NCBI GenBank assembly: GCA_013287775.1
Contig: JABDDE010000001.1
Span: forward strand, 7,245 to 71,244
Reading direction: 5' to 3'
Origin: Chlamydiota bacterium
GTDB taxonomy: Bacteria; Chlamydiota; Chlamydiia; Chlamydiales; FEN-1388
DNA: 64,000 bases
Made by a program: the position numbers and the translations under genes. This document shows, piece by piece, positions 530 through 52,524 of this stretch. The notes under the pieces were generated by a model. The model ran no database searches. It was given only the letters and a program-made list of their open reading frames with translations, and was not told where the DNA came from. Each line of letters starts with the position of its first letter. Position 1 is the stretch's first letter.

Positions 530-560
530 CGAAACTGTTATAATCCTGTTTCTTGATTAA

Positions 561-2967: not shown

Positions 2968-5250
2968 ATGCACACTTTTGAAAGAAATTTAGGCTACTTT
3001 CAGAAGCTGAATCCGCGTGCAGCGGCGCTTCTTTCGTGTGCAAACACAGAACATCTGCAATTTTGCCACACACAAAAAGGTGAGCTGAATCTCGTCGATA
3101 CTCGAATACATCGCACATACCACGACCCAAAAGGGGCTTTGGATGAGGCTATAAAGACTGCCCAAGCTTTTAAGCTTCCCCACCACTATCTGTGCATATA
3201 TGGCGTGGGGCTGGGGTTTCTCTATCAAGCGCTCTCACAGTGGCTGCATGAAGATGAGAGACGTCTTCTTATTATCTTGGAAGATGATTTAGCCGTTATT
3301 TCGCGATTTTTGGAAACCAAAGCAGCGAGTGAGCTACTACTAGACAAGCAGGTATTTCTATACTATTTTGAACATGGCGAGCATTCTGAGTATATTGCGC
3401 AGAGTATTGCGTGGATCACATTTTCAGAGCCTTTAGTTTTCTATGCATCTCCTGTCTATCGTGAAAGGCAGGCATTTGAGGAGATAGAAAAAGTACTGCT
3501 GAATGAGCAAGCAATCGTATATATGATTCTGGGGGAATATGAGATGCTTGGCTGCCCCTTTTTTTGTAATTTTTGGCAAAACCTGCGCCATTTACCGCAT
3601 TCCTATAATGCTGCAGACCTTTTTAGAGCCTTTAAAGGCATTCCTGCGTATGTTATGGGAGCGGGGCCATCACTCACAAAGCAGCTCCCTCTTCTTCGCA
3701 CTCTCTCAGATCGCGCCCTTCTTATTGCTGGTGGTTCTGCTATGAATATTGCCTGTGAGGCAGGTTTGCAGCCTCATTTTGGTGGCGGGGTTGATCCTAA
3801 CCCAACACAGTATTTAAGACTGCGGCAGAGTTTAGCAGTGGAGATGCCGTTTTTTTATAAGCTCAGAGTGTGCTCACGCGTTCCAGATATGGTTATGGGA
3901 ACAAAATTCTACCTTAAAGGTGATGATGCGTATGGGCCTGGGACATGGTTTGATAAAACGCTCCGTATTCGGGGCAAAGAATTTGAAGGCGGCTACAGCA
4001 TAGCCAACACAAGTATTGCCCTCGCCCATGCTCTTGGATGCAATCCTATTATCTTGGTTGGCTTTGATCTTGCCCTGACTGAAGATCGTCACTATGCTAA
4101 AGGGGTAGAGCATGATGAAGAGGAGCCTACCATAGTTGCGTGGAAAGATTATCAAGGCAAGCCCACAAAGACACTGTGGAAGTGGGTGATGGAAGCTGAA
4201 TGGATTTCAGACTTTTGTGAAAAGCACCCCTCAGTGCAGTGTATCAATGCCACAGAAGGTGGGCTCTGGATTCCCAATGTCACCCATATGCCACTCCAGG
4301 ATGCTGCCAAAAAGTGGTGCAAAAAGGAATATGACATGCAAGGGCTTGTGCATATGGCTATACAAAACGCATCCCCACTCAAATGTACACATAAGGCAAT
4401 TCAGCGTCATATGGGGCGCATTGTAGATAGCCTAAAAAAAGCGCAGGAGCTACTAGAACACGTTCTACAAGATAGCAGCAAAGTAAAACTACACGATCCT
4501 TTTGATAATCCTGATATTGCGGCTCTCTTTTATCAGCTTCAAGGAGAGCCTGCGTTTTTGGCAGTGCTTCAAGAGTTTTACAAAAAAGAGATGAAAAGGA
4601 TACAAGTGAGATGTGAGTGGTTGCAGCATCCTGGAGTTACAGATTTTGAGAGGAACAAAGCCATTTACAACATGCGCTGCGAGTGTTTTGAGTGTTTATT
4701 GCAAGTGACAAAAATGAATATCTCCATTATTGCAGAAATTCTTATGTCATGTACGAGTTTTCCTGCGGAAAACTCGCACATGACAAAAAATAGCAGCTCA
4801 GGCGATGTGGTAGCGAAACGTGGGGTTGTGTGTCAATATTTCGATGATGGGAAGCTTGCGAGCCAAACAGAATATGCGGAGGGGCGCCGTGAGGGAGAAG
4901 CGTTTTTTTATTCACGAGAGGGAATATGCGTGCGTAAGGCGACATATACACATGGGGTGTTAGATGGCAAGCAGTACTATTACTATCCAGACGGCGTTCT
5001 CAGGGCTGTTGTGGACTATAAAAATGGAGAGCTCGATGGCGAGTACCGTCATTACTATCCTAATGGGAAGATAATGCGCCAAATTTCGTGTCAGGCTGGC
5101 AAGCGTCATGGGCTTGATACGCTATGGGAGCAAGATGGACAAAAGCAAGGTAAAGAGCGGTTTATATTCCGTTATGAGCATGGTGTCTTAACAGAGGAGC
5201 TGCTTGCTGACCGCATTGCAGATGAGTATGATGTTCTTAATATTCTATGA
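2968..5250 (+). CDS. DUF115 (Maf/MptE-like) domain protein fused to C-terminal MORN/YwqK-type repeats
   Basis: VMGAGPSL..LIAGGSAMN..GGGVDPNP is the DUF115 core. The C-terminus has repeated YxxGxLxGxxxxYYPNG units (DGKQYYYYPDGVL, DGEYRHYYPNGKI). A PE-1 hairpin is translated in frame at 4745-4785. Confidence 0.7.
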   Translation: MHTFERNLGYFQKLNPRAAALLSCANTEHLQFCHTQKGELNLVDTRIHRTYHDPKGALDEAIKTAQAFKLPHHYLCIYGVGLGFLYQALSQWLHEDERRLLIILEDDLAVISRFLETKAASELLLDKQVFLYYFEHGEHSEYIAQSIAWITFSEPLVFYASPVYRERQAFEEIEKVLLNEQAIVYMILGEYEMLGCPFFCNFWQNLRHLPHSYNAADLFRAFKGIPAYVMGAGPSLTKQLPLLRTLSDRALLIAGGSAMNIACEAGLQPHFGGGVDPNPTQYLRLRQSLAVEMPFFYKLRVCSRVPDMVMGTKFYLKGDDAYGPGTWFDKTLRIRGKEFEGGYSIANTSIALAHALGCNPIILVGFDLALTEDRHYAKGVEHDEEEPTIVAWKDYQGKPTKTLWKWVMEAEWISDFCEKHPSVQCINATEGGLWIPNVTHMPLQDAAKKWCKKEYDMQGLVHMAIQNASPLKCTHKAIQRHMGRIVDSLKKAQELLEHVLQDSSKVKLHDPFDNPDIAALFYQLQGEPAFLAVLQEFYKKEMKRIQVRCEWLQHPGVTDFERNKAIYNMRCECFECLLQVTKMNISIIAEILMSCTSFPAENSHMTKNSSSGDVVAKRGVVCQYFDDGKLASQTEYAEGRREGEAFFYSREGICVRKATYTHGVLDGKQYYYYPDGVLRAVVDYKNGELDGEYRHYYPNGKIMRQISCQAGKRHGLDTLWEQDGQKQGKERFIFRYEHGVLTEELLADRIADEYDVLNIL
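4745..4785. repeat. PE-1 hairpin element inside a CDS (in frame)
   Basis: tgtcatgtacgagttttcc tgc ggaaaactcgcacatgaca; it reads MSCTSFPAENSHMT in the frame of ORF 2968-5250. Confidence 0.9.
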
Positions 5251-6989: not shown

Positions 6990-7181
6990 GTAAGAAACCA
7001 GGTAAGGGTTGGTTTATAAAAACCTCTCAGCCCAAAAGGGCACCCCTGGCGCAAAACATGTCCTCAGTATAACAACTTTTGTGGAAAGCAGCAAGCAGCG
7101 TTTAGGAAAATGGCACACAGACGTAATTCCCTCTTGCAAAAAACTCTCGATATGTGAGATATTGGTAGTAATTTTAATTAA

Positions 7182-7223
7182 ACGTCGTGTGCTATTTTCC
7201 GCCAGGAAAATAGCATATGACGT
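7182..7223. repeat. PE-1 hairpin element
   Basis: acgtcgtgtgctattttcc gcca ggaaaatagcatatgacgt, 20 nt upstream of the rpsD ATG. Confidence 0.85.
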
Positions 7224-7243
7224 CTGAAATTTAAGGAGACACA

Positions 7244-19114: not shown

Positions 19115-19164
19115 GATGTTTTCGATTCTACGAGAACAAGGGGATTATTTGCAATAGTAATAAT

Positions 19165-19204
19165 GTCATGTGCAAATTTTCCTGACGGAAAATTTGCACA
19201 TGAC
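19165..19204. repeat. PE-1 hairpin element (consensus-like, perfect)
   Basis: gtcatgtgcaaattttcc tgac ggaaaatttgcacatgac followed by gaaaat. Confidence 0.95.
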
Positions 19205-19209
19205 GAAAA

Positions 19210-19397
19210 TGACTCACATGTGAGGTACTTGCAAAATTCCGATTTGGGCCAAAATTTGCGCTTTTGTCGCTGTGGAAAAACCTTTTGCAAATCGCCTACT
19301 CGAGGGAGTATGTCGATTTGCAAAAGGTTTTCCCCATCACCAAAATCATCAAATTTTGTCTCCAACGGAATTTTGCAAGCACCTCATGTGTGAGTCA
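19210..19397. mobile_element. 188-bp foldback MITE (family 4), copy 1
   Basis: 32-bp terminal inverted repeats tgactcacatgtgaggtacttgcaaaattccg / cggaattttgcaagcacctcatgtgtgagtca (3 mismatches). The two halves are ~70% complementary throughout. The second copy is at 33731-33935. Confidence 0.75.
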
Positions 19398-22155: not shown

Positions 22156-22525
22156 AATATTTTTCCCATATTTTATTGGTTTCTAAAAAAGTAACTCGTA
22201 CGTATGGCCCTTAGGGATTGTTAAGAAACAACTCATACATTTGAGAGGGGGTTGTAGCGAATTATCTTCTGTGCCTCCTAGCTTGAAGATATTGCTTTGT
22301 AATATCTCCCGCGCAAGGTCTGCTTGAGAATGTAATTTACTCTAACGCCCTCTGGAAAGTACGATTTATTCCTTAACGACCCTTACCACATGGGGCAAGG
22401 ATCGTACGCATTTAATCAATTATTATATACCAAGAAAGAATTTATTGGCAATCCATATTTTTTTGATTTTTTTTGAAGCCAAAAATCATGCATTCGTTCA
22501 TAGTGCAGAAAAGGGAGTACAAATA

Positions 22526-24496
22526 ATGAAACATCTCTATAATATAATACTTTTTTCCATATCGTTACTTGTTTGTCAAACAGTTGCGGCTAAGCCTGCA
22601 GAGCTTTCACAGCAAAATGTAACGGATAAAATGCATGAAATTATGAGGGCGCATGTGCTCTACAAGCATTTTTCACCGCTTCTTGCAAAGCGCTCTATTA
22701 GTAACTTTATCGAGGCGCTCGATCCTACAAAGACCTATTTTCTCTTTAGTGAGATAGAAAGGTGGTTAGATCTCGATGAAGATGGTCTTAAACAAGTTGT
22801 GGAGGATTTTGAGCAATCTGAGTTTCCTCTTTTTACAGCTATTTTTGAGCAAATGGATCAAGCGCTTAAAAGACGTGATCTATTCGAAGAGAGGTTGAAA
22901 GGCGTGGCTCTGCCAAAAAACGTCACTCCCAAGGAATTTAAAGACATGAGTTGGTGTGCCAATGAAGCAGAGCTGTATAATCGGTTAAAACGCCTTCGAG
23001 CGCTACAGCTGGAGGCTGCGGGAAACATTGGCGATGATGCCACTTTGAGAGCCAAACAGCGACTTGCAAAAAAACGTAAAATCATGGAAGAAGAGTTTCA
23101 AAATACCGATCCTGTCCTTCGACAAGAAACTATCTGTACACATATTATGAAGGCACTTGCTTCTTCTCTAGACCCTCATACAATGTACTTTACTCCAGAT
23201 GAAGCGTCGCAGTTTTTGTTTTTAATACAGCAGCGCCTTGTGGGCATTGGTGTGCAGCTACGAGATGATGTAGATGGCTTTACCATTGTCAAGATGGTAG
23301 AAGGCGGGCCTGCAGAAGTGTCTAAGGAAATAAAGGTGAAGGACAAGATTATTGGGATCAACGGTGAGCCTGTGATCGGCCTTGATGATGCTGAGGTAAT
23401 CGATATGATCCGAGGCCCCTCTGGAACGCAAGTTGCTCTACGCGTTATTCGTGAAATAGGCCATGATGGGGCAAAAATGCAGCAGGTAAAGGAGATTCAT
23501 CTTACAAGAGGCGATGTTATTGTGAAAGAAGCTCGTCTCGAAACGGCTATCGAGCCATTTGGCGAGGGTGTTATTGCGCACCTGCACCTGCATTCTTTTT
23601 ACCAAGATGAAGATAGCTCTTCAACAACTGATATCATAAAGGCCCTGGGCGAGATACGCAAAAACTACAAAGTAGTTGGGGTTATGCTAGACCTTAGAAA
23701 TAACTCTGGAGGCATTTTAACGGAAGCGGTTAATATTGTTGGTCTTTTTATAAAAAAAGGCGTTGTTGTTTCTATTAAGGATGAACAAGGCAGCGTACAT
23801 CATATGAGAGATTTAGATTCAGAGCAAATATGGGATGGGCCTGTAGCTGTTTTGGTAAATCGTTTGAGCGCGTCGGCGGCTGAAATTGTGGCGCAGGCCC
23901 TGCAAGATTATGGGAGAGCGCTTATTATAGGGGACGATCACACCTATGGGAAGGGCACTTTTCAGACATTTACGCTGACAGGGGCGACTATTAATCCTGA
24001 AGGCGAGTATAAAGTGACGCGTGGCTGTTACTATACGGTGTCTGGCAAGACGCCGCAGCTTGTTGGTACCAGAGCAGATATTATGATTCCAAGTGGTCTT
24101 ATGGGGCTAGAAATTGGCGAAGAGTATGCAAAATATCCCATAGAAAATGACACCATAGCTCCGAGCTTTAATGATACCTTTAGCGACATTTCGTTCTTTC
24201 AGCGAGACAGGGTTCGAAGGCTCTATGGTAACAATGTACAAAAGCCTGACCCGCACATTCGGAGCTTTTTTGCCCTCCTTCGCAAAAATAGCAAAATACG
24301 ACAGGAAAATAACAAGGCATATCAACGCTTTTTGTTGGAGATGAAAAAGAGTGTGGATGAAATGGAGAGCGATACTTCCCTTGAGCATGCTCCCGATTTT
24401 CAGCTTCAAGAGGCGATGAATACGATGAAAGACTATATTATTGATGTTGTGTGCAATTTTCCTGCGGAAAATGTGCACACAACATCAATAAAATGA
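22526..24496 (+). CDS. tsp: Tail-specific (C-terminal processing) protease, S41 family, with PDZ domain
   Basis: Signal peptide MKHLYNIILFSISLLVCQTVAA, a PDZ domain (IVKMVEGGPAE..KDKIIGING), LDLRNNSGG and SASAAEI..GKGT. AAGGGAG RBS. The last 17 aa derive from a PE-1 copy. Confidence 0.9.
   Translation: MKHLYNIILFSISLLVCQTVAAKPAELSQQNVTDKMHEIMRAHVLYKHFSPLLAKRSISNFIEALDPTKTYFLFSEIERWLDLDEDGLKQVVEDFEQSEFPLFTAIFEQMDQALKRRDLFEERLKGVALPKNVTPKEFKDMSWCANEAELYNRLKRLRALQLEAAGNIGDDATLRAKQRLAKKRKIMEEEFQNTDPVLRQETICTHIMKALASSLDPHTMYFTPDEASQFLFLIQQRLVGIGVQLRDDVDGFTIVKMVEGGPAEVSKEIKVKDKIIGINGEPVIGLDDAEVIDMIRGPSGTQVALRVIREIGHDGAKMQQVKEIHLTRGDVIVKEARLETAIEPFGEGVIAHLHLHSFYQDEDSSSTTDIIKALGEIRKNYKVVGVMLDLRNNSGGILTEAVNIVGLFIKKGVVVSIKDEQGSVHHMRDLDSEQIWDGPVAVLVNRLSASAAEIVAQALQDYGRALIIGDDHTYGKGTFQTFTLTGATINPEGEYKVTRGCYYTVSGKTPQLVGTRADIMIPSGLMGLEIGEEYAKYPIENDTIAPSFNDTFSDISFFQRDRVRRLYGNNVQKPDPHIRSFFALLRKNSKIRQENNKAYQRFLLEMKKSVDEMESDTSLEHAPDFQLQEAMNTMKDYIIDVVCNFPAENVHTTSIK
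24443..24486. repeat. PE-1 hairpin element forming the 3' end of tsp
   Basis: gatgttgtgtgcaattttcc tgc ggaaaatgtgcacacaacatc; translated as DVVCNFPAENVHTTS. Confidence 0.85.
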
Positions 24497-26197: not shown

Positions 26198-26310
26198 ATA
26201 TTTCCTCAGTATTGATTTATAATTTAAACATATCATATTATAATTTTCCTGAAAAGATTTATATTATATTTCAAAAACTGATGGTTTTTATGTTGTCGTG
26301 CATATATTTA

Positions 26311-26351
26311 ACGTCATGCACCATTTTCCGTAGGAAAATGGTGCATGACGT
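26311..26351. repeat. PE-1 hairpin element (perfect) abutting the stop of the HEAT-repeat gene
   Basis: acgtcatgcaccattttcc gta ggaaaatggtgcatgacgt; the stop codon is at 26352-26354. Confidence 0.95.
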
Positions 26352-28088
26352 CTACTGATACAAGCACTGCAAGATAGCCCCTGCAGCCCGTATTCGGATG
26401 ACAGGTGAGGGATCTCCCAGCACATCATAGAGAAATGGTAAGGAATTTTTTGAGCCTATAGCGCCCAGGCCGAGTAAAATCTGCTCTTTATGCTCGCGCT
26501 TCGTATGGGTGTGGGAAAATGCTTCTTGGAGCGCCTTAAGCGCTTCTCCATCTTGGAAGGCAACGCATAAGATGAACGCTGCCTGAAGACGGATGACATC
26601 CGACTGGTTTTGTAAAAGCTCGCTAAGTTGTGTGGCTACTTCAGTATTTTCATCAGCCTCTTGTATCAGAAGCATAGCTGCTGCAGCTGCAATGCCAAGG
26701 GTGTGTTCATGCAAAAACGTCGTGCATATGTCTTGAATGATGGAAGGATCACAAGTGGCAAGGACTTGATAGAGTTCGAGGCGGCAGTAGAGATCCTTCA
26801 TTTCTGGCAAGCGAGGCATGAGCGGGCTGTGAAGATCATCTGCGCGTGCAATATAGCGAAAGATGCCTTTCGTGCTCCATGTTATTCGATCCTTCACTGC
26901 GATAAGTGCCTCTTGGAGTATGGGTACGGCGGTATCAAGGTGTGTTCGTTGTTTTATAAGATGAAGAGATAAATTGATTGCCACCAAAGGATCTGTTGTA
27001 GCCTCCAGCCATTTTTTTGAAAGGTCAATGCCCCTTGCGCCTGTGTGCATAAGCGCCCCTGCGCTCAGGGCGCGGTATGCTGGATTTTCAGCCCCAAGCC
27101 ACCTCTCGAGCACTGCTGCGCCCTCGGTATTTCCCATAATGATATCAAGCCAGCAAGCAGTGATGGCAAGCACCCCATCCTCTGTATGCATAAGGGGCTG
27201 ATGTGTTATCCCATTCACACAGTTTGGTAAGCCACCTTGTGCTTGCAGCGCTGCTATTTGCACATCAATTGACGGGTCTTGTATGAGAGGGCCGAGTAAG
27301 TCTGAGCAGTCCCCCAGTTGCTGGATCCGGATACAATCTGCGGCAAGTTGCCTTTCTTCAGGGACTTTGCTCTGACACAGCTTCTCAAGGGACGATCTCT
27401 CTATTGTAGGCTGTATGTAGAGCTCAGCAAGTATTGCGGCCTGTCTTTCTGCATAGGAAGCCGTCATATCTCGAAGACGTGCACTGATAACATCCCTTCC
27501 TTTGAGCGAGCGCATTTTGCCAAGCGAAATGAGCGCCGCACATCGAACAGGAGGTGATCGATCATGCTGACTTGCTAGTATGAGCTTGGTTTCTAGTTTT
27601 TCATCGCGAAAAGCTACTGCAAGCTCGGCTGCCATACAGCGAAGTGCCACGTTTTGATCTTGTAAAAGCTCGCTCACCACCGAAACCCCCTTTGCATCGT
27701 GCGTGCGATGCGCAGCGTAGGCGGCTTCAAAGCGGATAAGAGGAGAGGGATGCTGAGCTGCCTTGCGTATTACTGCCCACGCTACCGCTTCGACAAGATG
27801 TTCTTCTTGATTATGATCATTTTGAGCTACTTCGGGATGGTTTTTTCTAAAATCTGCCCAAGTAGCGAGCATGGATTTTTCATCTTGCAAAGAGGCTAAG
27901 AGGAGGATTTTTTGGCGAAGAAGATCTGCACGTGCAGGGTCATTTTTCAGGGCCGTCTCCACCACTTCGAGCGCTCCATGAAAATCGCGCACAGTACTCA
28001 AAAGCTTTGCACGATGCAGCGCCGTGTCACTATTGGCCCACAGCTGACAGGAAACTAGGAGAAAAATTATGTAGAAGAGCCTTGTCAC
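26352..28088 (-). CDS. HEAT (PBS-lyase type) repeat protein with a signal peptide
   Basis: Signal peptide MTRLFYIIFLLVSCQLWANS. Repeated units of the D/N.....VR..AA.AL type. GTG start overlapping the HIT stop. Confidence 0.7.
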   Translation of the reverse strand: MTRLFYIIFLLVSCQLWANSDTALHRAKLLSTVRDFHGALEVVETALKNDPARADLLRQKILLLASLQDEKSMLATWADFRKNHPEVAQNDHNQEEHLVEAVAWAVIRKAAQHPSPLIRFEAAYAAHRTHDAKGVSVVSELLQDQNVALRCMAAELAVAFRDEKLETKLILASQHDRSPPVRCAALISLGKMRSLKGRDVISARLRDMTASYAERQAAILAELYIQPTIERSSLEKLCQSKVPEERQLAADCIRIQQLGDCSDLLGPLIQDPSIDVQIAALQAQGGLPNCVNGITHQPLMHTEDGVLAITACWLDIIMGNTEGAAVLERWLGAENPAYRALSAGALMHTGARGIDLSKKWLEATTDPLVAINLSLHLIKQRTHLDTAVPILQEALIAVKDRITWSTKGIFRYIARADDLHSPLMPRLPEMKDLYCRLELYQVLATCDPSIIQDICTTFLHEHTLGIAAAAAMLLIQEADENTEVATQLSELLQNQSDVIRLQAAFILCVAFQDGEALKALQEAFSHTHTKREHKEQILLGLGAIGSKNSLPFLYDVLGDPSPVIRIRAAGAILQCLYQ

Positions 28089-29303: not shown

Positions 29304-29354
29304 GACATAAGTATAGCAAAATTTTACTACAAAATCATGTGTTTTTTTAGTAAG

Positions 29355-29390
29355 GTGACGTTAAGTGCGAATTTTCCTGTGAGAAATATT
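29355..29390. repeat. PE-1 hairpin element, degenerate, directly upstream of the ATG at 29391
   Basis: gtgacgttaagtgcgaattttcc tgtg agaaatatt. Confidence 0.5.
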
Positions 29391-31493
29391 ATGAGAATAG
29401 ACTTATCACAACATGATCTTGTGACGCCAGATGGCAAAATTGTCTCCATTACAAAAAAAGATGATGGGATAAGTATGGCCGAGGTGGTGATTGAACATAT
29501 TCATTCTTCCTTTGTGGGGTTTGATATCGATCCAGCGCTTGTTACTTTTAATATTAAGAGTACGCTTGCGCAGCTGGGCATTAATGGGATTGGGATGCAC
29601 TATGAGCTGCATCGAGGGCATAGCAAGGCTATGGTTCTTGTAGAGCTTAGGGCTATCGGCTCGATTGGGCGCGAGCTTTTGCAAGAGCTACCTCTGGGAG
29701 CATACATAGGCAAGCTTTTTGCTGCCGATGAGCGAAGACGCGTTCGCGATCCTATCTATCTTTCTCGTATGTTTGGTCGCTCAGATCGTTGGGGAAGGCC
29801 TCTTTTATCGCTAGGAGGCTTACATGGCAGTGACGAGCTTATTTTGGACAAGATTGATGGTCGCACCGTTGCGTACCTTGCATTAAAAAGAGGAAAAATC
29901 ACCTATGATGCCTCGGTTTTTGGCTTTCTCAGAACGCTTGCAAAGGGGCTTACGACCAAGCACACGTTTCGAGAGCTGCTGCAGCTTCATCAGGAATGGA
30001 ATGCTGGTGCGTTTCGTAATGTCGAAGAGGATGAGATTTTACTTGTAAAAACGCAGCCTCTTCATATTCGCACCGTTTTTGCAAAAGTGGTAGATTCGCT
30101 CTTAGCTGCTGGTTATTGCCATACCACAGCATCTGTTTTACAGCCCGACACGCGTGCCTCAGGTGACATTTACGAATTTTATGGCAAATCAAAGCGAGAA
30201 ATTACAGATCTTCCTCTTGAATTTTACACTCTTGACCCATACAGAGAACATGTTTTCTTTGCAGATCGTGACCAGCTGCAAGCGTGTCTTGAGGATCCTC
30301 AGGCGCTCTTTAAAGCCTTTGAGACAGCTCCGAAGCCCACAGAGGTCCCTGTGGCTACGTTTGTTGTGAAGGGTTCACAGCTTCTTTCCTTGGCGGCAGA
30401 TGATTGGGTGGCTCGTGAATCAACTTTTCATGACTTTCCCGGTATTACTCATGGGGCGCGGCAGGCCTTTTTAGTGGAGCGATATATTGAAAGTCAGGCA
30501 GTATTTCCTTTTTTGAAGGCCATAGAAGAGGGTCGTATTACGAGTCAAGGGGTGTTATTTCTCCGCTATTTCCCCTCTCCCATGATGAAGAGGATGCTTC
30601 TTTCTGCAGCGGTAGCCCGTTCTGTGCAGGGGATTTATTTCCAACATCCCTCTAGATCTTATGGGGGCTTTTTTTCGCAAGAGGATCGAGCACTACTTAC
30701 AGACCTTCATAAGTTTGCCATTGGAGTGTTTTGGGTGGATGCTATTTCGGGAAAAATCCTCCAGTACATGCAGCGTAAAGATCGAGAGTCCGGCATGTTT
30801 GTCCCTATTGGAAGGGGTGAGGAATATATGAAGGCAACGGTATTTGGAGTATATGGCTCAAACTTAATTTCAGGTCACTTTGAAGAAGAGCTGCAAGCGT
30901 TATTGAAAGGAGTGCTGGAGCTTCGAAATACCGTGCATCATCCGCTTTTACAAAAAGATACCCCTCTAGCGCTCATCACGGGAGGTGGTCCCGGTGCCAT
31001 GGAAGTGGGCAACCGCATTGCCAGGAAGCTTAATATCCTTTCATGCGCCAATATTGCAGACTTTCATGAAGAAGGCGGGGTAGTCAATGAGCAAAAACAA
31101 AATCCCTACGTGGATGCAAAGATGACCTACCGCCTGAAGCAATTAGTGGAGCGACAATCGGAATTTAATCTCGACTTTCCCATTTTTGTCATGGGAGGTA
31201 TTGGTACTGACTTCGAATTTACGCTTGAAGAGGTACGTAGGAAAGTCGGGGCTACTGCTGCAACTCCTGTGCTTCTTTTTGGAGAAATCGAATACTGGAA
31301 AAGCAAAATCACGCCCCGTTTTTTGCAAAATAAACAGAGCGGTACCATTGTAGGATCCGAATGGGTAAGCAATTGCTTTTTCTGCATCCAAAAAGCCACG
31401 CAGGGGCTAGAAATTTATTCTCAGTTTTTTCATGGCACGTTGCCAATAGGAAAAAATGGGGCAGAAACGGATGTAGGATTTGTCTGTCCTTAA
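29391..31493 (+). CDS. Large protein with a C-terminal LOG/TIGR00730 (lysine-decarboxylase-like) Rossmann domain
   Basis: LITGGGPGAMEVGN...FVMGGIGTDFEF (PGGxGTxxE-like). I do not recognise the ~500-aa N-terminal region. The start was trimmed past the repeat-derived leader. Confidence 0.6.
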   Translation: MRIDLSQHDLVTPDGKIVSITKKDDGISMAEVVIEHIHSSFVGFDIDPALVTFNIKSTLAQLGINGIGMHYELHRGHSKAMVLVELRAIGSIGRELLQELPLGAYIGKLFAADERRRVRDPIYLSRMFGRSDRWGRPLLSLGGLHGSDELILDKIDGRTVAYLALKRGKITYDASVFGFLRTLAKGLTTKHTFRELLQLHQEWNAGAFRNVEEDEILLVKTQPLHIRTVFAKVVDSLLAAGYCHTTASVLQPDTRASGDIYEFYGKSKREITDLPLEFYTLDPYREHVFFADRDQLQACLEDPQALFKAFETAPKPTEVPVATFVVKGSQLLSLAADDWVARESTFHDFPGITHGARQAFLVERYIESQAVFPFLKAIEEGRITSQGVLFLRYFPSPMMKRMLLSAAVARSVQGIYFQHPSRSYGGFFSQEDRALLTDLHKFAIGVFWVDAISGKILQYMQRKDRESGMFVPIGRGEEYMKATVFGVYGSNLISGHFEEELQALLKGVLELRNTVHHPLLQKDTPLALITGGGPGAMEVGNRIARKLNILSCANIADFHEEGGVVNEQKQNPYVDAKMTYRLKQLVERQSEFNLDFPIFVMGGIGTDFEFTLEEVRRKVGATAATPVLLFGEIEYWKSKITPRFLQNKQSGTIVGSEWVSNCFFCIQKATQGLEIYSQFFHGTLPIGKNGAETDVGFVCP

Positions 31494-31549
31494 CCTATGA
31501 CGACCGCAAAATCCGGTGGATTTTGTGGTCGCCATAGGTTAAGGACAGA
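31483..31549. terminator. 67-bp near-perfect palindrome overlapping the stop codon at 31491-31493
   Basis: tctgtccttaacctatgacgaccgcaaaatcc ggt ggattttgtggtcgccataggttaaggacaga; 32-bp arms with 2 mismatches. Confidence 0.55.
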
Positions 31550-31560
31550 CAATTGATATC

Positions 31561-37000: not shown

Positions 37001-37283
37001 TATTAAAGCGATCGCGGATGGTGCCGCGCTCTGCTGCTTGTACGACCACTTTTGTGCGTGCCAGAAATGCCTCTTCTGATTTTTTGTCGTGCTGGATAAT
37101 AGCCAAATGCCACAGGCGCAGCGCAATAAGCAAAAGCAAAAAAAGCACTACATTCAGAAGACGGTTAGCCTTTACTGGAATGGATGCAAGGGATGGAGAG
37201 TGGTCTCGGCGTATATTTCTCACACCATTATGGTATTTTGTTTGTGAAAAAAACGCAACATACGTGTATAATGGAGACGTCAT
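34035..37283 (-). CDS. Penicillin-binding protein 2 (transpeptidase), long chlamydial type
   Basis: N-terminal TM with SxxK (GSIFKLITGY), SxN (SSNPYF) and a KTG-like motif (GKTSTSE). The ~1080 aa length matches chlamydial PBP2. The start codon lies within a PE-1 arm. Confidence 0.85.
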   Translation of the reverse strand: MTSPLYTYVAFFSQTKYHNGVRNIRRDHSPSLASIPVKANRLLNVVLFLLLLIALRLWHLAIIQHDKKSEEAFLARTKVVVQAAERGTIRDRFNIVLATNTTDFRLGIIYASLREIPQVIFDKTSTGERRKVYLRKMYIRALAELIEREVGLDQERVVDLIYSYAAQNNNIPYILKNHLTEQEYYRLKMLEKDWPGLHVERIPKRSYPHGKALCHILGYLAPIQKEQYEKVLSDIHTTASAITVAELGLGLPAPFTTIEEAKKSLTELQERAYTINDHIGTLGVEASFENYLRGFYGKEEYFSDAKGNFVRSLQSQPPLSGKRLVLSISLQLQEYAEKLLAESEKVRKSAAKQEQEKTHERYKEPWIRGGSIVAIDPKNGQVVALASFPRFDPNDFIQANENVKRWIENEEYEAATWNQKIGLVQEEVGPDGSMQEKEELLEWDRFLEWILPPHCPIKTLLSENTSLEHIIALQSAFNEILKRAPTLSPEEVMSLLYEQGDEPYVGQFLQDVATYKAVLDRALQPLQNTKERLLLLDLSRLIIQAEEINTRGAAATELSRYSIREFRALSSTAVFISELLKKEAKKIFRLHTMKAWRSTHEKAFLQAKRVEEKRAGKYPRPYLEYIDKHEKEAFDAFWKKWKEALLTFACTKNSAAFGTEFVELEPYIERFAELHDKIKPLFPYAPELLHICKGYMDITHPLYGRYRGLGTDAKSLASSFMKSVSGHYLRSYAFRESSIQGSIFKLITGYTALKQLYLEKQGSVSPKDMQLFEISDHYYKMHGKTFVGNFSNGQPIPQLYKGGRIPKSLNLHLGTMNLLRAIETSSNPYFSLLAGDFLHDPTTLIQCAQDFGYGEKSGIQLPYEIKGNLPQDIATNKTGLYATAIGQHTLVNTPLQSSCMIAALANGGDLLRPQIALLAAGRTISEQPSSVNEVEEFSRHVRRSVFLPVEIQNTLFEGMRRCTSHAQEEYKRKRFIGAGCHFLPRVYKEFTAMQGLIGKTSTSEVVERIGLDVGDTPHMYRHIWYGGIAFPQNNGVFTFQDPELVVVVYLRYGGYGKDAAPIAAAIVNKWREIMSSHSRART

Positions 37284-37318
37284 ATGTCATTTTCCTAACG
37301 GAAAACGACATATGACGA
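37277..37318. repeat. PE-1 hairpin element containing the PBP2 start codon
   Basis: acgtcatatgtcattttcc taac ggaaaacgacatatgacg followed by aaaatag. Confidence 0.85.
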
Positions 37319-37335
37319 AAATAGCTTGTCCTTAT

Positions 37336-37883: not shown

Positions 37884-37911
37884 AGTTCCAATTGGGCATG
37901 TTCTAATTTTC

Positions 37912-37950
37912 GTCATGTGTAATTTTCCGTTAGGAAAATTCACACATGAC
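37912..37950. repeat. PE-1 hairpin element (reverse orientation) abutting the stop of the BNR gene
   Basis: (attttc)gtcatgtgtaattttcc gtta ggaaaattcacacatgac. Confidence 0.9.
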
Positions 37951-39671
37951 TAGTCTTTATGCATCATGCGTGTGAGCAGTTCATGTACATGCTTTTTGTG
38001 AGCCTCTACGATGGTAACAAAGGGGGCTTGCCGCTTGTTCTTATCAAGGATGACGATGGCATGGTGCTCACGGTCAAACAGAAGCCTTTCTGGTTTTTTA
38101 AAGGGCCCATTAAATGATTTTGTGTAGATAGCATACAGCTTACTCTTCTGAGCCACTAAGAAAGGATAGTCGCCATCTACCATGTTGCCTTGCGTCGTTG
38201 TTGGTCCATGTTGAACTATATATGACTTTTTAGAAAGTCGCAGTTCTTTGACAAAGTTAAGGCCAGCTTTGGTGCTGCCTCCATTTTGTTTTTCAACCTC
38301 ATTATATACTGCAAGCCACGCATCGATCTTGGTTTTATTGATATGTGCCTTGTTATCGTTTCTGAGATCAAAGTACAAAACTCCTAGCTGTCCATCTTCA
38401 GTGATAGCAACGAATGGAGAAAATGCTTGAGGGTTTTTGGCATGTTTCGGTGTTCGGCTGATGCGTACGGGCTTAGACCATGTTTGGCCGCCATCTCGAG
38501 AGGAAGAGATCGCAATTTGGGGTAGCTTGTCATCGCGAAAGTGGCCTGTTTGCCATACGGCATACAGAAATCCATTTGCTGGATTTACGCAGAATGCAGG
38601 GATGATGTCTCCAGCTCTAATTAAGGCTCCAATGCCACCTGAAATATGGCCATGTTTGTACGTGTAGCCGCCCGTGAAGACTAAATTGCCATCGAGTGGA
38701 TGTACTACATGAGCATGTTTTTCCCACGTTTTTCCCTGATTTTTAGAGCGCACAAATGCTATATCGAATTTTGTATGCTGATAGGGGAATATATCGTTCG
38801 TATATTGCGCATCTGTCACACCAGGTTTGGCGAAGATGCGTACCATGAAGTTGAGCAGGTCCCCATTCATATGTGGTTTTTTGCCTTTCGGAAGGACAAC
38901 CACAATATTATTGACTGTTGAGTTGTCATTCAAAATGCCATTGCTGTGATTGTGTGCGATAAGGTCTGGAAATGGATCGTAGAGTACTTTATGGGGTGTC
39001 CACGTCTTACCACCATTTTTTGTACGGCTGATTTCTGTATGTGAGTGAAAAGAAATGGCTTGATCAAAGCGATCCCACACAGCATAGGCAAGGTCAGAAT
39101 AGTTGGGGTCGGCAGTAATTGAGGTCTTGTCGTCGAGTGCAAATAAACCTGTGGGCTCATTTAATGACTCCTGACTCGATGCAAGAAAATAGGGCTTACC
39201 CCAGTGCGCGCCACCATCTTTTGACACTGTAACAACGACGCCTTGTTGATTTTGGGTATTGCGCTCTGTTTTTGCATTGATGAAAATAGCAATGAGATAG
39301 ACACGGCTGCCGTCTTTTGAAAAGCTCAGCCATGTATCTGTGACCCTTTGCGAGATGCCGCCATTACATATCTGAAACGGTACTGTACTGTTTTTCCATG
39401 TTTTGCCGCCATCTTTAGAATAGGCAATGCCCGCCTCTAATGCACCAGCATTTGAAATTCTATCTTGTTGCCAGCAGGTAACGATATTATTTGTGTTTTT
39501 CGGATTGACCGCTATTGTCGGCTCTACAGCTGCACCAACATGAATGGTAGTTGTTGCATTATATACTTCTTGTTGTTTTAAGCAGTGGCGGCTATAGTGT
39601 GTTGCAAAGCCCTGAGACATCATTGTCAGGGCAGCTAATGCCCATGCTGCTAAAATGGAAAATTTTCTCAT
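37950..39671 (-). CDS. Secreted BNR/Asp-box repeat protein (sialidase/exo-alpha-sialidase-like beta-propeller)
   Basis: Signal peptide plus five SxDxGxTW boxes (SKDGGKTW, SKDGGAHW, TKNGGKTW, SKNQGKTW, SRDGGQTW). Confidence 0.75.
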   Translation of the reverse strand: MRKFSILAAWALAALTMMSQGFATHYSRHCLKQQEVYNATTTIHVGAAVEPTIAVNPKNTNNIVTCWQQDRISNAGALEAGIAYSKDGGKTWKNSTVPFQICNGGISQRVTDTWLSFSKDGSRVYLIAIFINAKTERNTQNQQGVVVTVSKDGGAHWGKPYFLASSQESLNEPTGLFALDDKTSITADPNYSDLAYAVWDRFDQAISFHSHTEISRTKNGGKTWTPHKVLYDPFPDLIAHNHSNGILNDNSTVNNIVVVLPKGKKPHMNGDLLNFMVRIFAKPGVTDAQYTNDIFPYQHTKFDIAFVRSKNQGKTWEKHAHVVHPLDGNLVFTGGYTYKHGHISGGIGALIRAGDIIPAFCVNPANGFLYAVWQTGHFRDDKLPQIAISSSRDGGQTWSKPVRISRTPKHAKNPQAFSPFVAITEDGQLGVLYFDLRNDNKAHINKTKIDAWLAVYNEVEKQNGGSTKAGLNFVKELRLSKKSYIVQHGPTTTQGNMVDGDYPFLVAQKSKLYAIYTKSFNGPFKKPERLLFDREHHAIVILDKNKRQAPFVTIVEAHKKHVHELLTRMMHKD

Positions 39672-41044: not shown

Positions 41045-42175
41045 TCACATAATCCCGTTTTGCAAAAGGGCTTCCTGGACCATCTTGAGGCTATATGGAC
41101 CATCATTATTTTTTAGTGGAGCAAAGCAAGTACTTCTGTCATAGACGACAACTCCTGCATTTTCTGACTCCTCCAAAATATCAAAGATAAAATACTCAAA
41201 TTTCCATGCTGGAGGAAGCTCTGGCGCAGGTTTTTTATGGGCTTTGTGTAAAGGAAGTGTATGTTTTGAAGTTACAAATTTTCTAATAAAGGCGAGGCTG
41301 AAACAAAAATTGCTGATATTAGCAAAGGGAAAAAGCAGCGCTCCAGTACTATCACGGGCGTTTTGTATTTCCTCAGATACTTCAAAATATTCACATACTT
41401 TAAGGTGTTTCCCCTGCTCTACGATAATGCCAAGGTGCTCTGCAGGATCTGTTTTTTTCATTGCCATTCTTTTCATTGCTATTCTTTCGATTGCTTTTAC
41501 GGTAATATCTCTATTTGCCAAGATATGTGAGCCGATAAGTTCTGCATCAAAGGGGTCTGCAAGGGGATTGTCGACGCAGATGACGACAATGTGTTCGATG
41601 CCTTGTTTTTCCCACGCTTGCAAAAGGCCGCAAGATTCCATATTCCAAAACAGTGAGCCATTGCCATCTGGCCCTTGCAGAGGGATGCCATCTGGTCCGA
41701 TGATATACTTTCCTGCATCGTCTAAAAAGGGAAGTGTGCTTTGCATAAAAAAGGATAATGAGTCTTTTGGTAGTCCAAAAAAATTATGACTTTGGAAAAA
41801 GGCATTTGTGGCGTCATGATTTTGTGCTGCAGTCATGCATGCAACAGACAGGGCTCTTTCCACTTGCGCGTTGCAAGCAATTATTTTCTCTGCAAATATT
41901 TGAAAAAGGCTTTTATGCAGGATTGGAGAAACAGAGATCATCCCTTTTGGGGTTGTGATCCCTAGCCTGCTTGCTTGGCCACCTGCAAGAATAACGCTAC
42001 CCACTTTGCCTTCTCGCAGCGCAATTTTTCCTGCCTCTTGTGCTTTTCGATTTGGAGCACGCTCAAAAGAGACAAGTGGCGAAAAGGTGCATGCAGGCTT
42101 CGGTGCTTCATGCAAACACGCAAGCTGTGAGTTATATACGGTATTATTCATGGAAACATCGTATAGTCTCTTCAT
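41045..42175 (-). CDS. UDP-sugar pyrophosphorylase (UDPGP family, eukaryote-type UDP-GlcNAc pyrophosphorylase-like)
   Basis: ILAGGQASRLG..PKGM and GPDGNGSLF motifs. The start is uncertain (ATG at 42175 or 42151). Confidence 0.8.
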   Translation of the reverse strand: MKRLYDVSMNNTVYNSQLACLHEAPKPACTFSPLVSFERAPNRKAQEAGKIALREGKVGSVILAGGQASRLGITTPKGMISVSPILHKSLFQIFAEKIIACNAQVERALSVACMTAAQNHDATNAFFQSHNFFGLPKDSLSFFMQSTLPFLDDAGKYIIGPDGIPLQGPDGNGSLFWNMESCGLLQAWEKQGIEHIVVICVDNPLADPFDAELIGSHILANRDITVKAIERIAMKRMAMKKTDPAEHLGIIVEQGKHLKVCEYFEVSEEIQNARDSTGALLFPFANISNFCFSLAFIRKFVTSKHTLPLHKAHKKPAPELPPAWKFEYFIFDILEESENAGVVVYDRSTCFAPLKNNDGPYSLKMVQEALLQNGIM

Positions 42176-43214
42176 ATACTTCGTCAACCGAGATTTGCAT
42201 CATACAGCGAAAATCGATGGGGCAAACTCTACGATAGCATGGACTGCATGAGACATGTTTATGAATAACACTGCCCCATTTATAAGGGCCAGTTTTGACC
42301 TCGTTAGTGGATCCAAAAATGGCTACAAGAGGTTTTCGTAAGGCGGCAGCAATATGCATGGGGCCACTGTCGTTGGTGACAAAGGCAGATGAAGTGTCTA
42401 CAAGGGCAATAAATTGTCTGAGAGTTGTTTTGCCAGCAAGGTTCACAACGCGTGGAGGAAAGTGTCGCACGATGTCGTCAACAAGTGTTTTTGTGTCCTG
42501 ATCCCCAAAATAGAGAACACGGCAGCGCATATCTTCTATAAGGCGATGTGTGAGTGCTATGAAGCGCTCTTTCGGCCAGCATTTGGCTGGTCCAAAAGCA
42601 GCTCCTGGATTGATTCCTATAATACGATGAGTATCAGAAACCCCATATGCCTCCAAGGTAGCCCACGCTTGTTTTTTTTCTTGCGCACTGACGTAGAGTG
42701 TGGGGCGTGTTAGGCTCGAGCTTTGCCCTGTAATTGGGTTGAGGAGTGCCTTATACATCTCTACTTCATGTACTTGTTCGGAGTTTTTTGGACGACATGC
42801 TGGATGAGTCAGCAAAAGACGGCGAAAATGCATGCTATAGCCTATGCGTACTGGGATTTTCGCTTTCCAGAACCACCATGCTGACGAAAATGAGTTTGTG
42901 GTGAGCAGACCTATATCAAATTTATGGTGTTTTAAATCGGCAATAATTTTTGGGACGTTTTTTTCTTTTTTTGAGAACGCAATAACCCCATCTACAAAAG
43001 GGCTCTCTTTCACAAGTTCACAAATTGAGAGATGCCCCAAAATAAACACCTCAGCATGTTTATTCCATGCTTTTATGTCTTCGAGTACTGGCAGAGCCAT
43101 GACAGCATCGCCAATCCAATTGGGCATGCGGACAATTATTTTTGTTTTCTCATGGTGTGAGCACCCTTGCAGGGAGCTCACATCATGAGAAAAATCGATG
43201 TTTTTTTCTGACAT
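42144..43214 (-). CDS. Glycosyltransferase family 9 (ADP-heptose:LPS heptosyltransferase II-like)
   Basis: IVRMPNWIGDAVMALP, GINPGAAFGPAKCWP and VTNDSGPMHIAAAL. Confidence 0.85.
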   Translation of the reverse strand: MSEKNIDFSHDVSSLQGCSHHEKTKIIVRMPNWIGDAVMALPVLEDIKAWNKHAEVFILGHLSICELVKESPFVDGVIAFSKKEKNVPKIIADLKHHKFDIGLLTTNSFSSAWWFWKAKIPVRIGYSMHFRRLLLTHPACRPKNSEQVHEVEMYKALLNPITGQSSSLTRPTLYVSAQEKKQAWATLEAYGVSDTHRIIGINPGAAFGPAKCWPKERFIALTHRLIEDMRCRVLYFGDQDTKTLVDDIVRHFPPRVVNLAGKTTLRQFIALVDTSSAFVTNDSGPMHIAAALRKPLVAIFGSTNEVKTGPYKWGSVIHKHVSCSPCYRRVCPIDFRCMMQISVDEVYEETIRCFHE

Positions 43215-44396: not shown

Positions 44397-44454
44397 GGGA
44401 GAGGATATGTTATTCTACTACCCCGAGCTTGCGAGGGGTAGTAGGATAACATGA
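44397..44454 (+). promoter_or_regulatory. 15-codon uORF plus an 18-bp hairpin overlapping the murA SD and start
   Basis: GGGAGAGGA, then ATG at 44407 and MLFYYPELARGSRIT, with TGA at 44452-44454 overlapping the murA ATG (44451). Arms 44407-44424 / 44435-44452 pair with one G-U. Confidence 0.5.
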
Positions 44455-45785
44455 CACTAATAATACGCGGAGGAACACCTCTGAGTGGCGAGGTGCAAGT
44501 AGCGGGAGCAAAAAATGCAACGACAAAGCTGTTGGTTGCATCACTTCTTTCTGACAAGCGATGCACCTTGTATAATGTCCCGAACATTGGGGATGTTGAA
44601 ATAACCGTTGCTTTATGCAAAGAAATGGGAGCAGAGGTTACTTGGGATAAAAAAGAAAAAACGCTCTCCATAATCACTCCAGAGCTCAAAACTTCCTATA
44701 TTTCCCAGCGGTTTTCTGGGGCTAATCGTATTCCTATTCTTATGATAGGAGCGCTTCTAGGGCGCACGGAAGAAGACATTATTGTCCCAACAGCTGGAGG
44801 CTGTAAGCTGGGGCCGCGTGCAATTGATTTTCATATTGATGCCCTACAAAAACTGGGCGCAACTATTGAACTTCGCGAGATGAAGAAAGAGGCGGCCTAT
44901 TTTGCCCATGCGCACAATGGCCTCAAAGGCGCTGTCATCAATTTGCCCTATCCTTCTGTCGGCGCCACTGAAAACAGCATTCTCGCTGCAGTTTCTGCCA
45001 AGGGGACAACTATTATTAAAAATGCCGCAGTAGAGCCTGAAATTGTCGACCTCATCCTCTTTTTGCAGAAACTCGGTGCCAATATCTCCATCGAGACAGA
45101 TCGGACGATTGTTATTCACGGGACGAAAAAATTTTATGAAGTAGAACATACAGTCATGCCAGATAGGAATGAGGCCGCCTCATTTGCGATGGCGGCCATC
45201 AGCACCAAAGGGCGTGTGTTTGTACGAGGCGCACAGCATCGAGACATGATGTGCTTTTTGAATAAAATTCGTGAACTCGGTGGCGGTTTTCATATTAAGC
45301 ACGACGGTATTGAATTCTTTTATGATGGCGCTCTTCAGGGGGGATGCCACTTAGAGACCGATGTGCATCCAGGTTTTTTAACCGACTGGCAACCACCCTT
45401 TGTCGTGCTTCTTACCCAGGCGTCAGGGGTGTCTGTCGTACATGAGACGGTTTACGAAAATCGCTTCGGCTATACTACCGCCCTCAAGGAAATGGGCGCA
45501 CAAATTGCGCTTTATAAACAATGCCTTGGTGGAAAAAATTGCAGATTTTCGACAAATGCACACTATCATAGCATTGCGATTAGCGGCCCCACACCACTTT
45601 CTGGAAAGACTATTTCAATTCCTGATTTGCGCGCGGGTTTTGCCTATGTTATGGCAGCGCTTATCTCACCCGAAGAGAGCACTCTTTCAGGTCTACATTT
45701 TATTGATCGTGGTTATGAAGATTTAACCACAAAACTAGAACAGCTCGGTGCAACCATTTGCCGAGCAAAAGAGAGTCATGTGTAA
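44451..45785 (+). CDS. murA: UDP-N-acetylglucosamine 1-carboxyvinyltransferase
   Basis: GGTPLSGEVQVAGAKNATTKLLVASLL. The active-site loop PTAGGCKLGPRAIDFH retains Cys. The last codons and stop lie in a PE-1 arm. Confidence 0.95.
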   Translation: MTLIIRGGTPLSGEVQVAGAKNATTKLLVASLLSDKRCTLYNVPNIGDVEITVALCKEMGAEVTWDKKEKTLSIITPELKTSYISQRFSGANRIPILMIGALLGRTEEDIIVPTAGGCKLGPRAIDFHIDALQKLGATIELREMKKEAAYFAHAHNGLKGAVINLPYPSVGATENSILAAVSAKGTTIIKNAAVEPEIVDLILFLQKLGANISIETDRTIVIHGTKKFYEVEHTVMPDRNEAASFAMAAISTKGRVFVRGAQHRDMMCFLNKIRELGGGFHIKHDGIEFFYDGALQGGCHLETDVHPGFLTDWQPPFVVLLTQASGVSVVHETVYENRFGYTTALKEMGAQIALYKQCLGGKNCRFSTNAHYHSIAISGPTPLSGKTISIPDLRAGFAYVMAALISPEESTLSGLHFIDRGYEDLTTKLEQLGATICRAKESHV

Positions 45786-45813
45786 TTCTCCTGGCGGCAG
45801 AATTACACATGAC
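45775..45813. repeat. PE-1 hairpin element containing the murA stop codon
   Basis: gtcatgtgtaattctcc tggc ggcagaattacacatgac followed by gaaaaaa. Confidence 0.85.
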
Positions 45814-45854
45814 GAAAAAATCAGCTATATGCAATTTTGCGATAGGAAAATTAT

Positions 45855-45893
45855 GCCATGTGCGACTTTTCCTGACGGAAAAGTGCACATGGC
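45855..45893. repeat. PE-1 hairpin element
   Basis: gccatgtgcgacttttcc tgac ggaaaagtgcacatggc followed by gaaaatag. Confidence 0.9.
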
Positions 45894-45977
45894 GAAAATA
45901 GCGCACATAGTGCCAATACAATTAACGCGAGGCGCGACTTACGAGCTGTTCGAATTGTAAGGATTCATAGCCTTTTC

Positions 45978-48764: not shown

Positions 48765-48775
48765 TTCTCCTATTA

Positions 48776-52510: not shown

Positions 52511-52524
52511 CTGATGACGACCTT

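Follow-up and report, generated by a model that had tools for sequence, protein, structure and literature searches.

PE-1, a hairpin-forming repeat of about 45 bases (about 45-55 bp), occurs in 12 confident copies in the 64-kb stretch of DNA analyzed here (hereafter the window, meaning this stretch at its full length), which derives from an uncultured member of the Chlamydiales, and its closest described counterparts are the palindromic elements of Rickettsia and one branch of the repetitive extragenic palindromic (REP) sequences. The Rickettsia palindromic elements (RPEs) were reportedly introduced by Ogata and colleagues in 2000. RPEs are palindromic insertions carried in frame within proteins (PMC10969869). 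Neisseria dRS3 belongs, together with RPE-4 and RPE-6 of Rickettsia, to the CGTC-tagged REP superfamily (Di Nocera, De Gregorio & Rocco 2013); REPs tagged with CGTC, TGTC or CCTC have A-T pairs at the start of the stem and a 3' tail, lie <20 bp from the 3' ends of open reading frames (ORFs), supply stop codons from their termini and in some copies lie within ORFs, with no dedicated transposase known, and CGTC repeats were not reported from Chlamydiae (PMC3733652). A literature search likewise returned no description of REP- or RPE-like repeats in Chlamydiae. We consider it likely that PE-1 is a REP-type interspersed palindromic repeat, lineage-specific and formerly or currently mobile, and one of at least four repeat families in this genome. 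Its copies are concentrated at the edges of genes, mainly directly past the 3' end and in sense orientation. A preliminary description of the window had proposed that hairpins are repeatedly captured as the starts and ends of genes; comparison with orthologous sequences supports capture as C-terminal coding sequence in Tsp, MurA and a BatD-like protein, and the proposal extends weakly to gene starts.

The element is a hairpin of the form (A)CGTCATGTGCAnnTTTTCC-N3-4-GGAAAAnnTGCACATGACG followed by the tail AAAATAGC, and in one orientation its full consensus reads [T(T/A)AT or AGAC]-(C/T)GTCATGTGCAnnTTTTCC-T(N)NC-GGAAAAnnTGCACATGAC(G)-AAAATAGC(GCACAT). The core, TTTTCC-N2-9-GGAAAA, was observed nine times in the window where 0.09 were expected, 100-fold over chance, and a covariance model (CM) trained on ten copies recovered the 12 confident copies, eleven scoring 60-68 bits and a long-stem variant (550-610) 48 bits. 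One strand scores 15-35 bits above the other, and PE-1 thus has a polarity, because the loop and tail raise the score on one strand. In an alignment of 13 copies, Watson-Crick or G-U pairs make up 95% of pair cells and 11 of 17 pairs show compensatory double changes, a level matched by none of 500 shuffles; the stem is maintained despite the divergence of the copies, which individually fold at -22 to -44 kcal/mol. Among these aligned copies, B, E and F carry the terminal tag CGTC, A, C, K and M carry TGTC, and the remainder AGTC, TGCC or CGCC (letters other than M as in Table 1); an AT follows the tag almost invariably. The termini CGTCAT and ATGACG place an outward-facing ATG at each end, each preceded by GGAAAA. 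In sense orientation, most copies can be read without a stop in one frame (the FP frame, xFPxxxK/N). Of the other two frames, one generally meets a stop in the loop (TCC TGA or TCC TAA), and the other generally ends either within CATGAC of the right arm, at its TGA, or at the tail TAG. TA stands at five of ten left flanks, which is suggestive of a target-site duplication; the flanking T(T/A)AT and AAAATAG are conserved between contigs, however, and probably belong to the element.

The distribution of PE-1 relative to genes is far from random. Seven of the 12 copies lie within -60..+5 nt of the stop codon of a gene that runs towards the repeat (the copy at 4742 counting among the seven only because ORF 2968-5250 was split at the repeat for this test), against a mean of 1.0 copies under random intergenic placement (P about 5e-5). 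Eight of the 12 window copies lie 3' of a gene, and when a copy on another contig, L019, is added (copies A, D, E, G, H, I, J and K and L019 861-916), all nine are co-oriented with that gene (two-sided binomial 0.004). Several of these copies touch the stop codon itself: the HEAT-repeat gene ends in a TAG (26352-26354) that is fused to PE-1, reading CAG TAG and then ACGTCATG; the TAG of the BNR-repeat gene (37950-37952) overlaps the first base of copy G, reading GAC TAG and then TCATG; and the closing ATT GAT TAA of the minus-strand Rieske gene (600..905) forms part of the outer stem in the variant at 550-610. These stops at 26352, 37950 and 600, together with one at 61437 that lies 5 nt from copy K, extend the set of stop codons made from or abutting PE-1 beyond those listed in the preliminary description.

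Where reading frames enter the repeats, the comparison with orthologues is direct. The last 17 codons of Tsp (22445..24496), DVVCNFPAENVHTTSIK (24443-24493), and the TGA that follows do lie, as had been claimed, inside a near-perfect hairpin at 24435-24494 with an RNA fold of -33.1 kcal/mol (z = -9.2), a copy distinguished by a 3-nt loop variant, CCTGCGG, and an additional outer stem, ATTGAT/ATCAAT. Among 24 Tsp orthologues, conservation extends to ...MKD(Y/L)I(I/L), after which the tails vary in length and sequence; in the window protein it ends at ...MKDYII and DVVCNFPAENVHTTSIK begins exactly there, the PE-1 tail including ..CNFPAEN.. and ...FPAENVHTTSIK. Chlamydial Tsp orthologues mostly end in ...AA, KAA or AAA, a tail lost to PE-1 in the window Tsp, and these ends resemble the non-polar C-termini that tail-specific proteases recognize. 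The murA stop had also been placed in a PE-1 arm, and its TAA (45783-45785) is indeed in the left arm of the copy at 45775-45813, with a second copy following at 45855-45895; homology of MurA to PDB chains reaches residue 436-443 of 444, PE-1 adds three residues and the stop, and this TAA is specific to the copy J variant. Five orthologues of the BatD-like protein end ...QLYxRLK(K), whereas the window protein runs on into LQSLRSAGRASSPS, a tail of ~11 aa that is the hairpin. In all three proteins conservation ends within 0-2 residues of the start of the hairpin, and the tails are absent from every orthologue, where terminal residues shared with orthologues would have pointed to a hairpin that evolved from coding sequence. 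Three further gene ends, at 50642, 52537 and 31493, had been ascribed to unrelated perfect hairpins: the overlaps with coding ends are real (41, 44 and 14 nt, respectively), the word perfect suits only the hairpin at 50634-50678 and neither 52523-52580 nor 31480-31552, and unrelated is only partly right, as some of the hairpins that are not PE-1 belong to other small repeat families.

Relatives and other contigs indicate the direction of these changes. PE-1 was absent from 76 kb of four syntenic loci in the nearest available relatives (L017, L018, L021 and L022), where five weak hairpins were found in total, a density of 0-1.6 per 10 kb compared with the window's 3.9 per 10 kb. These PE-1-free, hairpin-poor relatives, together with the absent tails, indicate by sequence comparison that the hairpins are lineage-specific additions at ancestral gene ends, as opposed to coding sequence that was remodelled. 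The syntenic relatives have a single strong hairpin, at L022 2202-2249 (AGTACATGACGATCG...CGATCGTCATGTACT), which lies in the 5' end of an 1830-aa ORF and carries a CATGACG/CGTCATG motif in an arrangement opposite to that of PE-1. A metagenome scan for PE-1 matched a single small contig, L019 (Ga0207126_1381; JGI, another metagenome, 2.4 kb), which has three copies beside unrelated genes, one at 861-916, 2 nt after the stop of a Sel1-repeat gene, and two at 2287-2410 in a 69-nt head-to-tail tandem whose tail, GAAAATAGCGCACAT, matches window positions 45894-45908. A pattern scan of genome contigs gave 16 single, taxonomically scattered chance matches among the matches listed, and scans of viral contigs and plasmids gave no match. 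In the Logan assembly of run SRR8434706, a 7.5-kb contig is identical to window positions 442-7903, four hairpins included, and the hairpins in this part are therefore not assembly artefacts.

One copy of PE-1, copy A, is read through. It is translated in frame as ..LMSCTSFPAENSHMTKNSS.., in the frame shared with the Tsp tail, inside the 760-aa ORF 2968-5250, where it stands between an MptE-like domain and MORN repeats. In three syntenic relatives (L017, L021 and L022) the MptE-like (597-624 aa) and MORN-type (163-183 aa) proteins are separate and their genes overlap by 4-17 nt; fused versions exist in more distant chlamydiae, with unrelated linkers. Both halves of the window ORF are closest to the split versions, with the MptE-like half 44% identical to the split protein P0122 and the MORN half 40% identical over 133 aa to the L017 MORN protein, fused proteins giving <=70 bits. 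Judging from these comparisons, the ORF is probably a secondary, repeat-mediated gene fusion located exactly at PE-1, and in the simplest reading the fusion came with the loss of ~20 codons of the upstream gene and 27-40 codons of the downstream gene. Copy A also holds a candidate MORN start, GGAAAA-N7-ATG ACA AAA.

Set against the described systems, PE-1 stands closest to the CGTC-tagged REPs, with which it shares the form of a short interspersed palindrome, an unpaired 3' tail, a location mostly just downstream of ORFs, overlap with stop codons and intragenic copies. In the REPs a CGTC tag, often changed to TGTC, precedes A-T pairs at stem positions 1-2 (CGTC-AT...AT-GACG); PE-1 resembles them here in part, with CGTC in 3 and TGTC in 4 of 13 aligned copies. 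The REPs differ in having a stem of 8-9 bp and a loop of 4-5 nt, against 17-19 bp and 3-4 nt in PE-1, whose tag is base-paired; their tail is CCA and they form head-to-head dimers, whereas PE-1 has the tail AAAATAGC and occurs singly or head-to-tail. PE-1 behaves like the CGTC/TGTC-tagged REPs and is a candidate member of the superfamily. With RPEs it shares the status of a palindrome of an obligate intracellular bacterium that is translated in or at the edges of unrelated housekeeping genes, with one conserved open frame and structurally tolerant sites (here the Tsp tail and the MptE-MORN linker); like them, PE-1 is translated in frame within otherwise conserved proteins and is absent from the orthologues, but it occurs in proteins only at termini or linkers. 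RPE-1 differs in its length of about 100-150 bp and in lying often well inside genes, whereas every PE-1 copy seen is at a gene edge or domain linker, and the RPEs belong to another host phylum and have no known sequence similarity to PE-1. The GTAG REPs and REPINs, mobilized by RAYT (Y1 HUH) transposases, resemble PE-1 in size class, hairpin structure, extragenic 3' location, the existence of several families per genome and TAG stops, but PE-1 has no GTAG tag, no RAYT in the scanned window ORFs and no inverted doublets. Miniature inverted-repeat transposable elements such as the Neisseria Correia element and ERIC are likewise non-autonomous, located at gene boundaries, folded as RNA and able to alter ORF ends, but they exceed 100 bp and have terminal inverted repeats around a non-palindromic body and target-site duplications (TA for Correia). 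PE-1 is a new family in a new phylum and not a new mechanism, because the overlap of REP termini with stop codons and the presence of REPs within genes were documented in 2013 (PMC3733652).

For gene starts the preliminary description was supported in part: the PBP2 start is doubtful, and a start that it had not listed, in an IscS-like gene, is backed by homology. The PBP2 ATG (37283-37281, minus) and its AGGAAAA are, as described, located in the PE-1 copy at 37278-37317; this is the sole ATG upstream of the membrane anchor, AGGA lies 9 nt upstream of it, and both are within an 18-bp stem of -27.9 kcal/mol. The PE-1 ATG would give PBP2 20 residues that its closest orthologues lack, and the best of these align from query residue ~19-21, beside an in-frame GTG at 37223, 20 codons downstream; for this reason PE-1 probably does not supply the ancestral start. 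The PBP2 ORF and a tRNA-Gly gene are divergent, and the 52 nt between them are all repeat (copy F); tRNA-Gly(tcc), at 37336-37406, starts 8 nt after the copy F tail. The DUF1207 start in the hairpin at 32368-32429 was rejected as an over-extension of the ORF, the signal-peptide Met being at residue 33, past the hairpin. For the IscS-like cysteine desulfurase, a start inside a hairpin is supported by homology: alignment to IscS structures begins at ORF residue 23-26, which is chain residue 1 in two of them and corresponds to the ATG at 59155-59153, within the TATGTCAT outer stem, and the TATGTCAT end is the same terminal motif as that of PE-1. The ATG at 29391 does follow a decayed PE-1, as had been noted; this copy survives as a solo left arm (29365-29379), and an ORF start at 29337 would have it read as ..ANFPVRN.., again in the FP frame. 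In the heptosyltransferase ORF 42144..43214, a 23-bp hairpin (TTTTCTCATGGTGTGAGCACCCT..., 43145-43193) is read in frame as residues 8-23, with no alternative ATG before the conserved first beta-strand, and it may be a further hairpin-encoded N-terminal extension.

These cases suggest how a REP-type repeat could rewrite gene ends. PE-1 would land on or next to a stop codon, and translation of the gene would then continue into the repeat until it meets a stop that PE-1 itself provides: TAA or TAG at the 5' edge, TGA or TAA within the loop, TGA on the right arm, or TAG or TGA in the tail. Because one PE-1 frame is open and the others are stopped, the frame of entry would decide the outcome, whether an unchanged protein, a few added residues (MurA, +3), a 17-aa tail (Tsp) or read-through (MptE-like plus MORN). 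Downstream ORFs would appear to start, or would really start, in PE-1 through its outward-facing ATGs. What would retain the copies is most likely an RNA-level role at mRNA 3' ends, to which their 3' position and sense orientation point. As has been suggested for REPs, PE-1 could shield transcripts from 3' exonucleases or modulate termination or translation, and insertions may in addition be tolerated only at the edges of genes.

Table 1. Copies of PE-1 and other hairpins at gene boundaries in the window (CM, covariance model; score in bits where given)
Feature	Position	Strand	Structure and relation to genes	CM
PE-1-like long-stem variant	550..610	-	over last 3 codons and TAA of Rieske gene	47.8 bits
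PE-1 copy A	4742..4796	+	3-nt loop; in-frame read-through inside ORF 2968-5250, MptE-like/MORN junction	CM
PE-1 copy B	7172..7225	-	divergent intergenic region, 20 nt upstream of rpsD start	CM
PE-1 copy C	19161..19216	+	perfect 18-bp stem; divergent intergenic region	CM
PE-1 copy D	24435..24495	+	last 17 aa and stop of Tsp	61.4 bits at 24442-24495
PE-1 copy E	26301..26353	-	stop of HEAT-repeat gene at its AGAC 5' end	CM
Decayed PE-1, solo left arm	29365..29379	+	exact 15/15 match to GTGCGAATTTTCCTG; 11 nt before ATG 29391
PE-1 copy F	37275..37328	+	holds first ATG of PBP2 ORF and AGGAAAA	CM
PE-1 copy G	37900..37954	-	BNR-repeat gene stop overlaps its first base	CM
PE-1 copy J	45771..45825	+	variant core TTCTCC; gives (S)HV and TAA of murA	CM
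PE-1 copy H	45851..45905	+	downstream of murA, head-to-tail with copy J	67 bits
PE-1 copy I	61211..61265	+	~190 nt past stop of NFACT-like gene	CM
PE-1 copy K	61380..61434	-	5 nt past stop of response-regulator gene (61437..62126, minus)	CM
Non-PE-1 hairpin	31480..31552	+	35-bp stem, 2 mismatches; last 4 codons and stop of ORF 29337..31493	
TATTCTCCTnCCCC-family hairpin	44407..44452	+	hairpin runs 2 nt (AT) into the murA ATG	
TATTCTCCTnCCCC-family hairpin	48774..48813	+	9 nt after stop of ATP/ADP translocase gene	
Non-PE-1 hairpin	50630..50682	-	perfect 20-bp core; encodes last 13 aa of GNAT-domain protein	
Non-PE-1 hairpin	52523..52580	-	28-bp stem, 2 mismatches; encodes last 14 aa of BatD-like protein, LQSLRSAGRASSPS	
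Hairpin with TGTCAT terminus	59148..59207	-	29-bp; outer stem holds IscS-like ATG (59155-59153)	

PE-1 is accompanied by further palindromes. The window contains 25 hairpins with stems >=14 bp against 0-2 in shuffled sequence, and those outside the family are not PE-1 by CM (E > 0.1). A second palindromic family, CCAGGGCGTTGCCCTGG, occupies six loci (5647, 7876/7942/8008, 33841 and 46007; 12 strand hits against 0.07 expected), three of its copies forming a 66-nt tandem right after rpsD. A third, TATTCTCCTnCCCC...GGGGnAGGAGAATA, comprises the two copies of Table 1 and one at L019 903-948, and as its first copy ends on the murA ATG, murA has repeats at both ends. The CTTCATGCCGC family occupies the gene-free interval 12400-14090, and one hairpin of the family recurs at 31757-31777. 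The gene-free intervals 12400-14090 and 31553-32367 hold 67-nt tandem units with CCCCAGTCTTCATGCCGC hairpins as well as GGAACAATCAATAAATTCC units, and a 12-nt tandem repeat lies at 31553-31760. The convergent OTU and HTH_17 genes are separated by a 67-nt gap that a 26-bp hairpin takes up (ATCATCATCATCATAGATGACCTC..., 21605-21660); L018, one of the syntenic relatives, has no hairpin there, and the neighbours of HTH_17 lie 1 nt apart. A TGTC tag is present on 3 of ~13 non-PE-1 hairpins, which is not significant, and the centre of the hairpin at 52523 has a 13-nt identity to the Pseudomonas REP core, which we take to be a likely coincidence of two simple palindromes. The genes of the window include those for an ATP/ADP translocase, a 1082-aa PBP2 and OTU, LRR and HEAT proteins, and the best foreign match of its Tsp, at 60% identity, is among proteins named Chlamydiales or Parachlamydiaceae.

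Several observations weigh against reading PE-1 as a mobile, REP-type family of gene 3' ends. The sample of PE-1 is small, comprising the window and the 2.4-kb contig L019, and four of the 12 copies are in 5' or divergent regions. Pfam scans of the 40 longer window ORFs detected no Y1_Tnp, RAYT or other transposase domain. Ten window proteins tested against a collection of 15 billion proteins had no close relative, and the extra members of their clusters were other assemblies of the same genome. With the window proteins being singletons, no empty site, target duplication or presence/absence polymorphism was found, and we infer mobility from distribution only, that is, from the dispersed copies, the presence of PE-1 on an unrelated contig and its absence from relatives. 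The copies have diverged to a mean column identity of ~74%, and PE-1 activity may for this reason be ancient and not, as the preliminary description suggested, ongoing. A test of G-U versus A-C asymmetry gave no support for sense-strand RNA selection of PE-1, and the reverse strand of the copies folds slightly better (-442 vs -408 kcal/mol, summed).

A different account, which we regard as unlikely, holds that the hairpins, PE-1 included, are transcription terminators or stabilizers of mRNA 3' ends selected in place, their overlap with coding sequence being a consequence of genome compaction. PE-1 shares with rho-independent terminators a strong, sense-oriented hairpin immediately after stop codons; local folds of <= -28 kcal/mol in 70 nt are present at 13 of 46 gene 3' ends and at none of 60 coding controls, the sense orientation of all nine copies 3' of genes fits this account, and many hairpins are unique within the window. 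Yet a T-run (6 of 8 bases), sought after 29 hairpins, was found only after those at 32368-32429 (+) and 45775-45813 (-, antisense to murA), and the 3' flanks of PE-1 are A-rich in sense orientation (AAAAT); because hardly any hairpin precedes a T-tract, we rejected classical intrinsic terminators as an explanation. PE-1 further differs from rho-independent terminators, which have a GC-rich stem and a 3' U-tract, in its far longer AT-rich stem and in recurring at many loci, also upstream of genes, and a requirement for structure alone would leave unexplained the same loop and tail at twelve loci, the copies that lie in divergent promoter regions or are translated within an ORF, and the presence of the family on an unrelated contig. 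Termination or stabilization is compatible with a REP-type repeat, for which it would be a reason that copies are retained.

More doubtful still, and in our judgment rather improbable, is the possibility that PE-1 is a portable "punctuation" module that remodels genes, fusing them (MptE-like and MORN), re-starting them (MORN, possibly PBP2) and appending a common xFPxEN tail to proteins such as Tsp, with the hairpins at large forming a U-tract-independent 3'-end system. The features that suggest such a module are the stops in two frames, the single open frame and the GGAAAA-N6-8-ATG facing outward at both ends.

We attach very little weight to the proposal that the hairpins grew out of the coding ends, whose last codons would have been copied in an inverted duplication or by a template switch, leaving the coding arm as the ancestral one. 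No second copy of the hairpins at 52523, 50630 or 31480 occurs in the window, and the Rieske protein has the same length as its L022 orthologue though its last three codons lie in a stem, as this proposal would predict; but the coding arm of the BatD-like hairpin encodes residues lacking in five of five orthologues, the same is true of Tsp, and the orthologues thus contradict an inverted copy of the coding end for both proteins. The arms of PE-1 are, moreover, repeated sequence rather than local coding sequence, and the TATTCTCCT hairpins proved to be a family, so that the apparent uniqueness of others may only reflect a 64-kb sample. Equally improbable is an annotation artefact, in which mechanically called ORFs extend into hairpins whose residues the real proteins lack: this holds for several starts (DUF1207, PBP2), and REPs at N-termini are often not truly coding (PMC3733652), but Tsp, MurA, the BatD-like protein, the GNAT protein and the Rieske protein read into their hairpins with no earlier in-frame stop, and the junction of ORF 2968-5250 is without a stop in two independent assemblies.

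With at least four repeat families in one uncultured chlamydia and PE-1 lacking in the 76 kb of its relatives, the window presents a clean case of lineage-specific invasion of an obligate intracellular genome. For annotation, it means that repeats have produced stop codons, start codons and probably also the fusion of two genes in this metagenome-assembled genome, and the terminal residues and several of the predicted starts should therefore not be trusted as ancestral. A second intracellular phylum thereby independently replicates the observation made in Rickettsia that palindromic repeats become protein sequence, and adds to it a likely repeat-mediated gene fusion.

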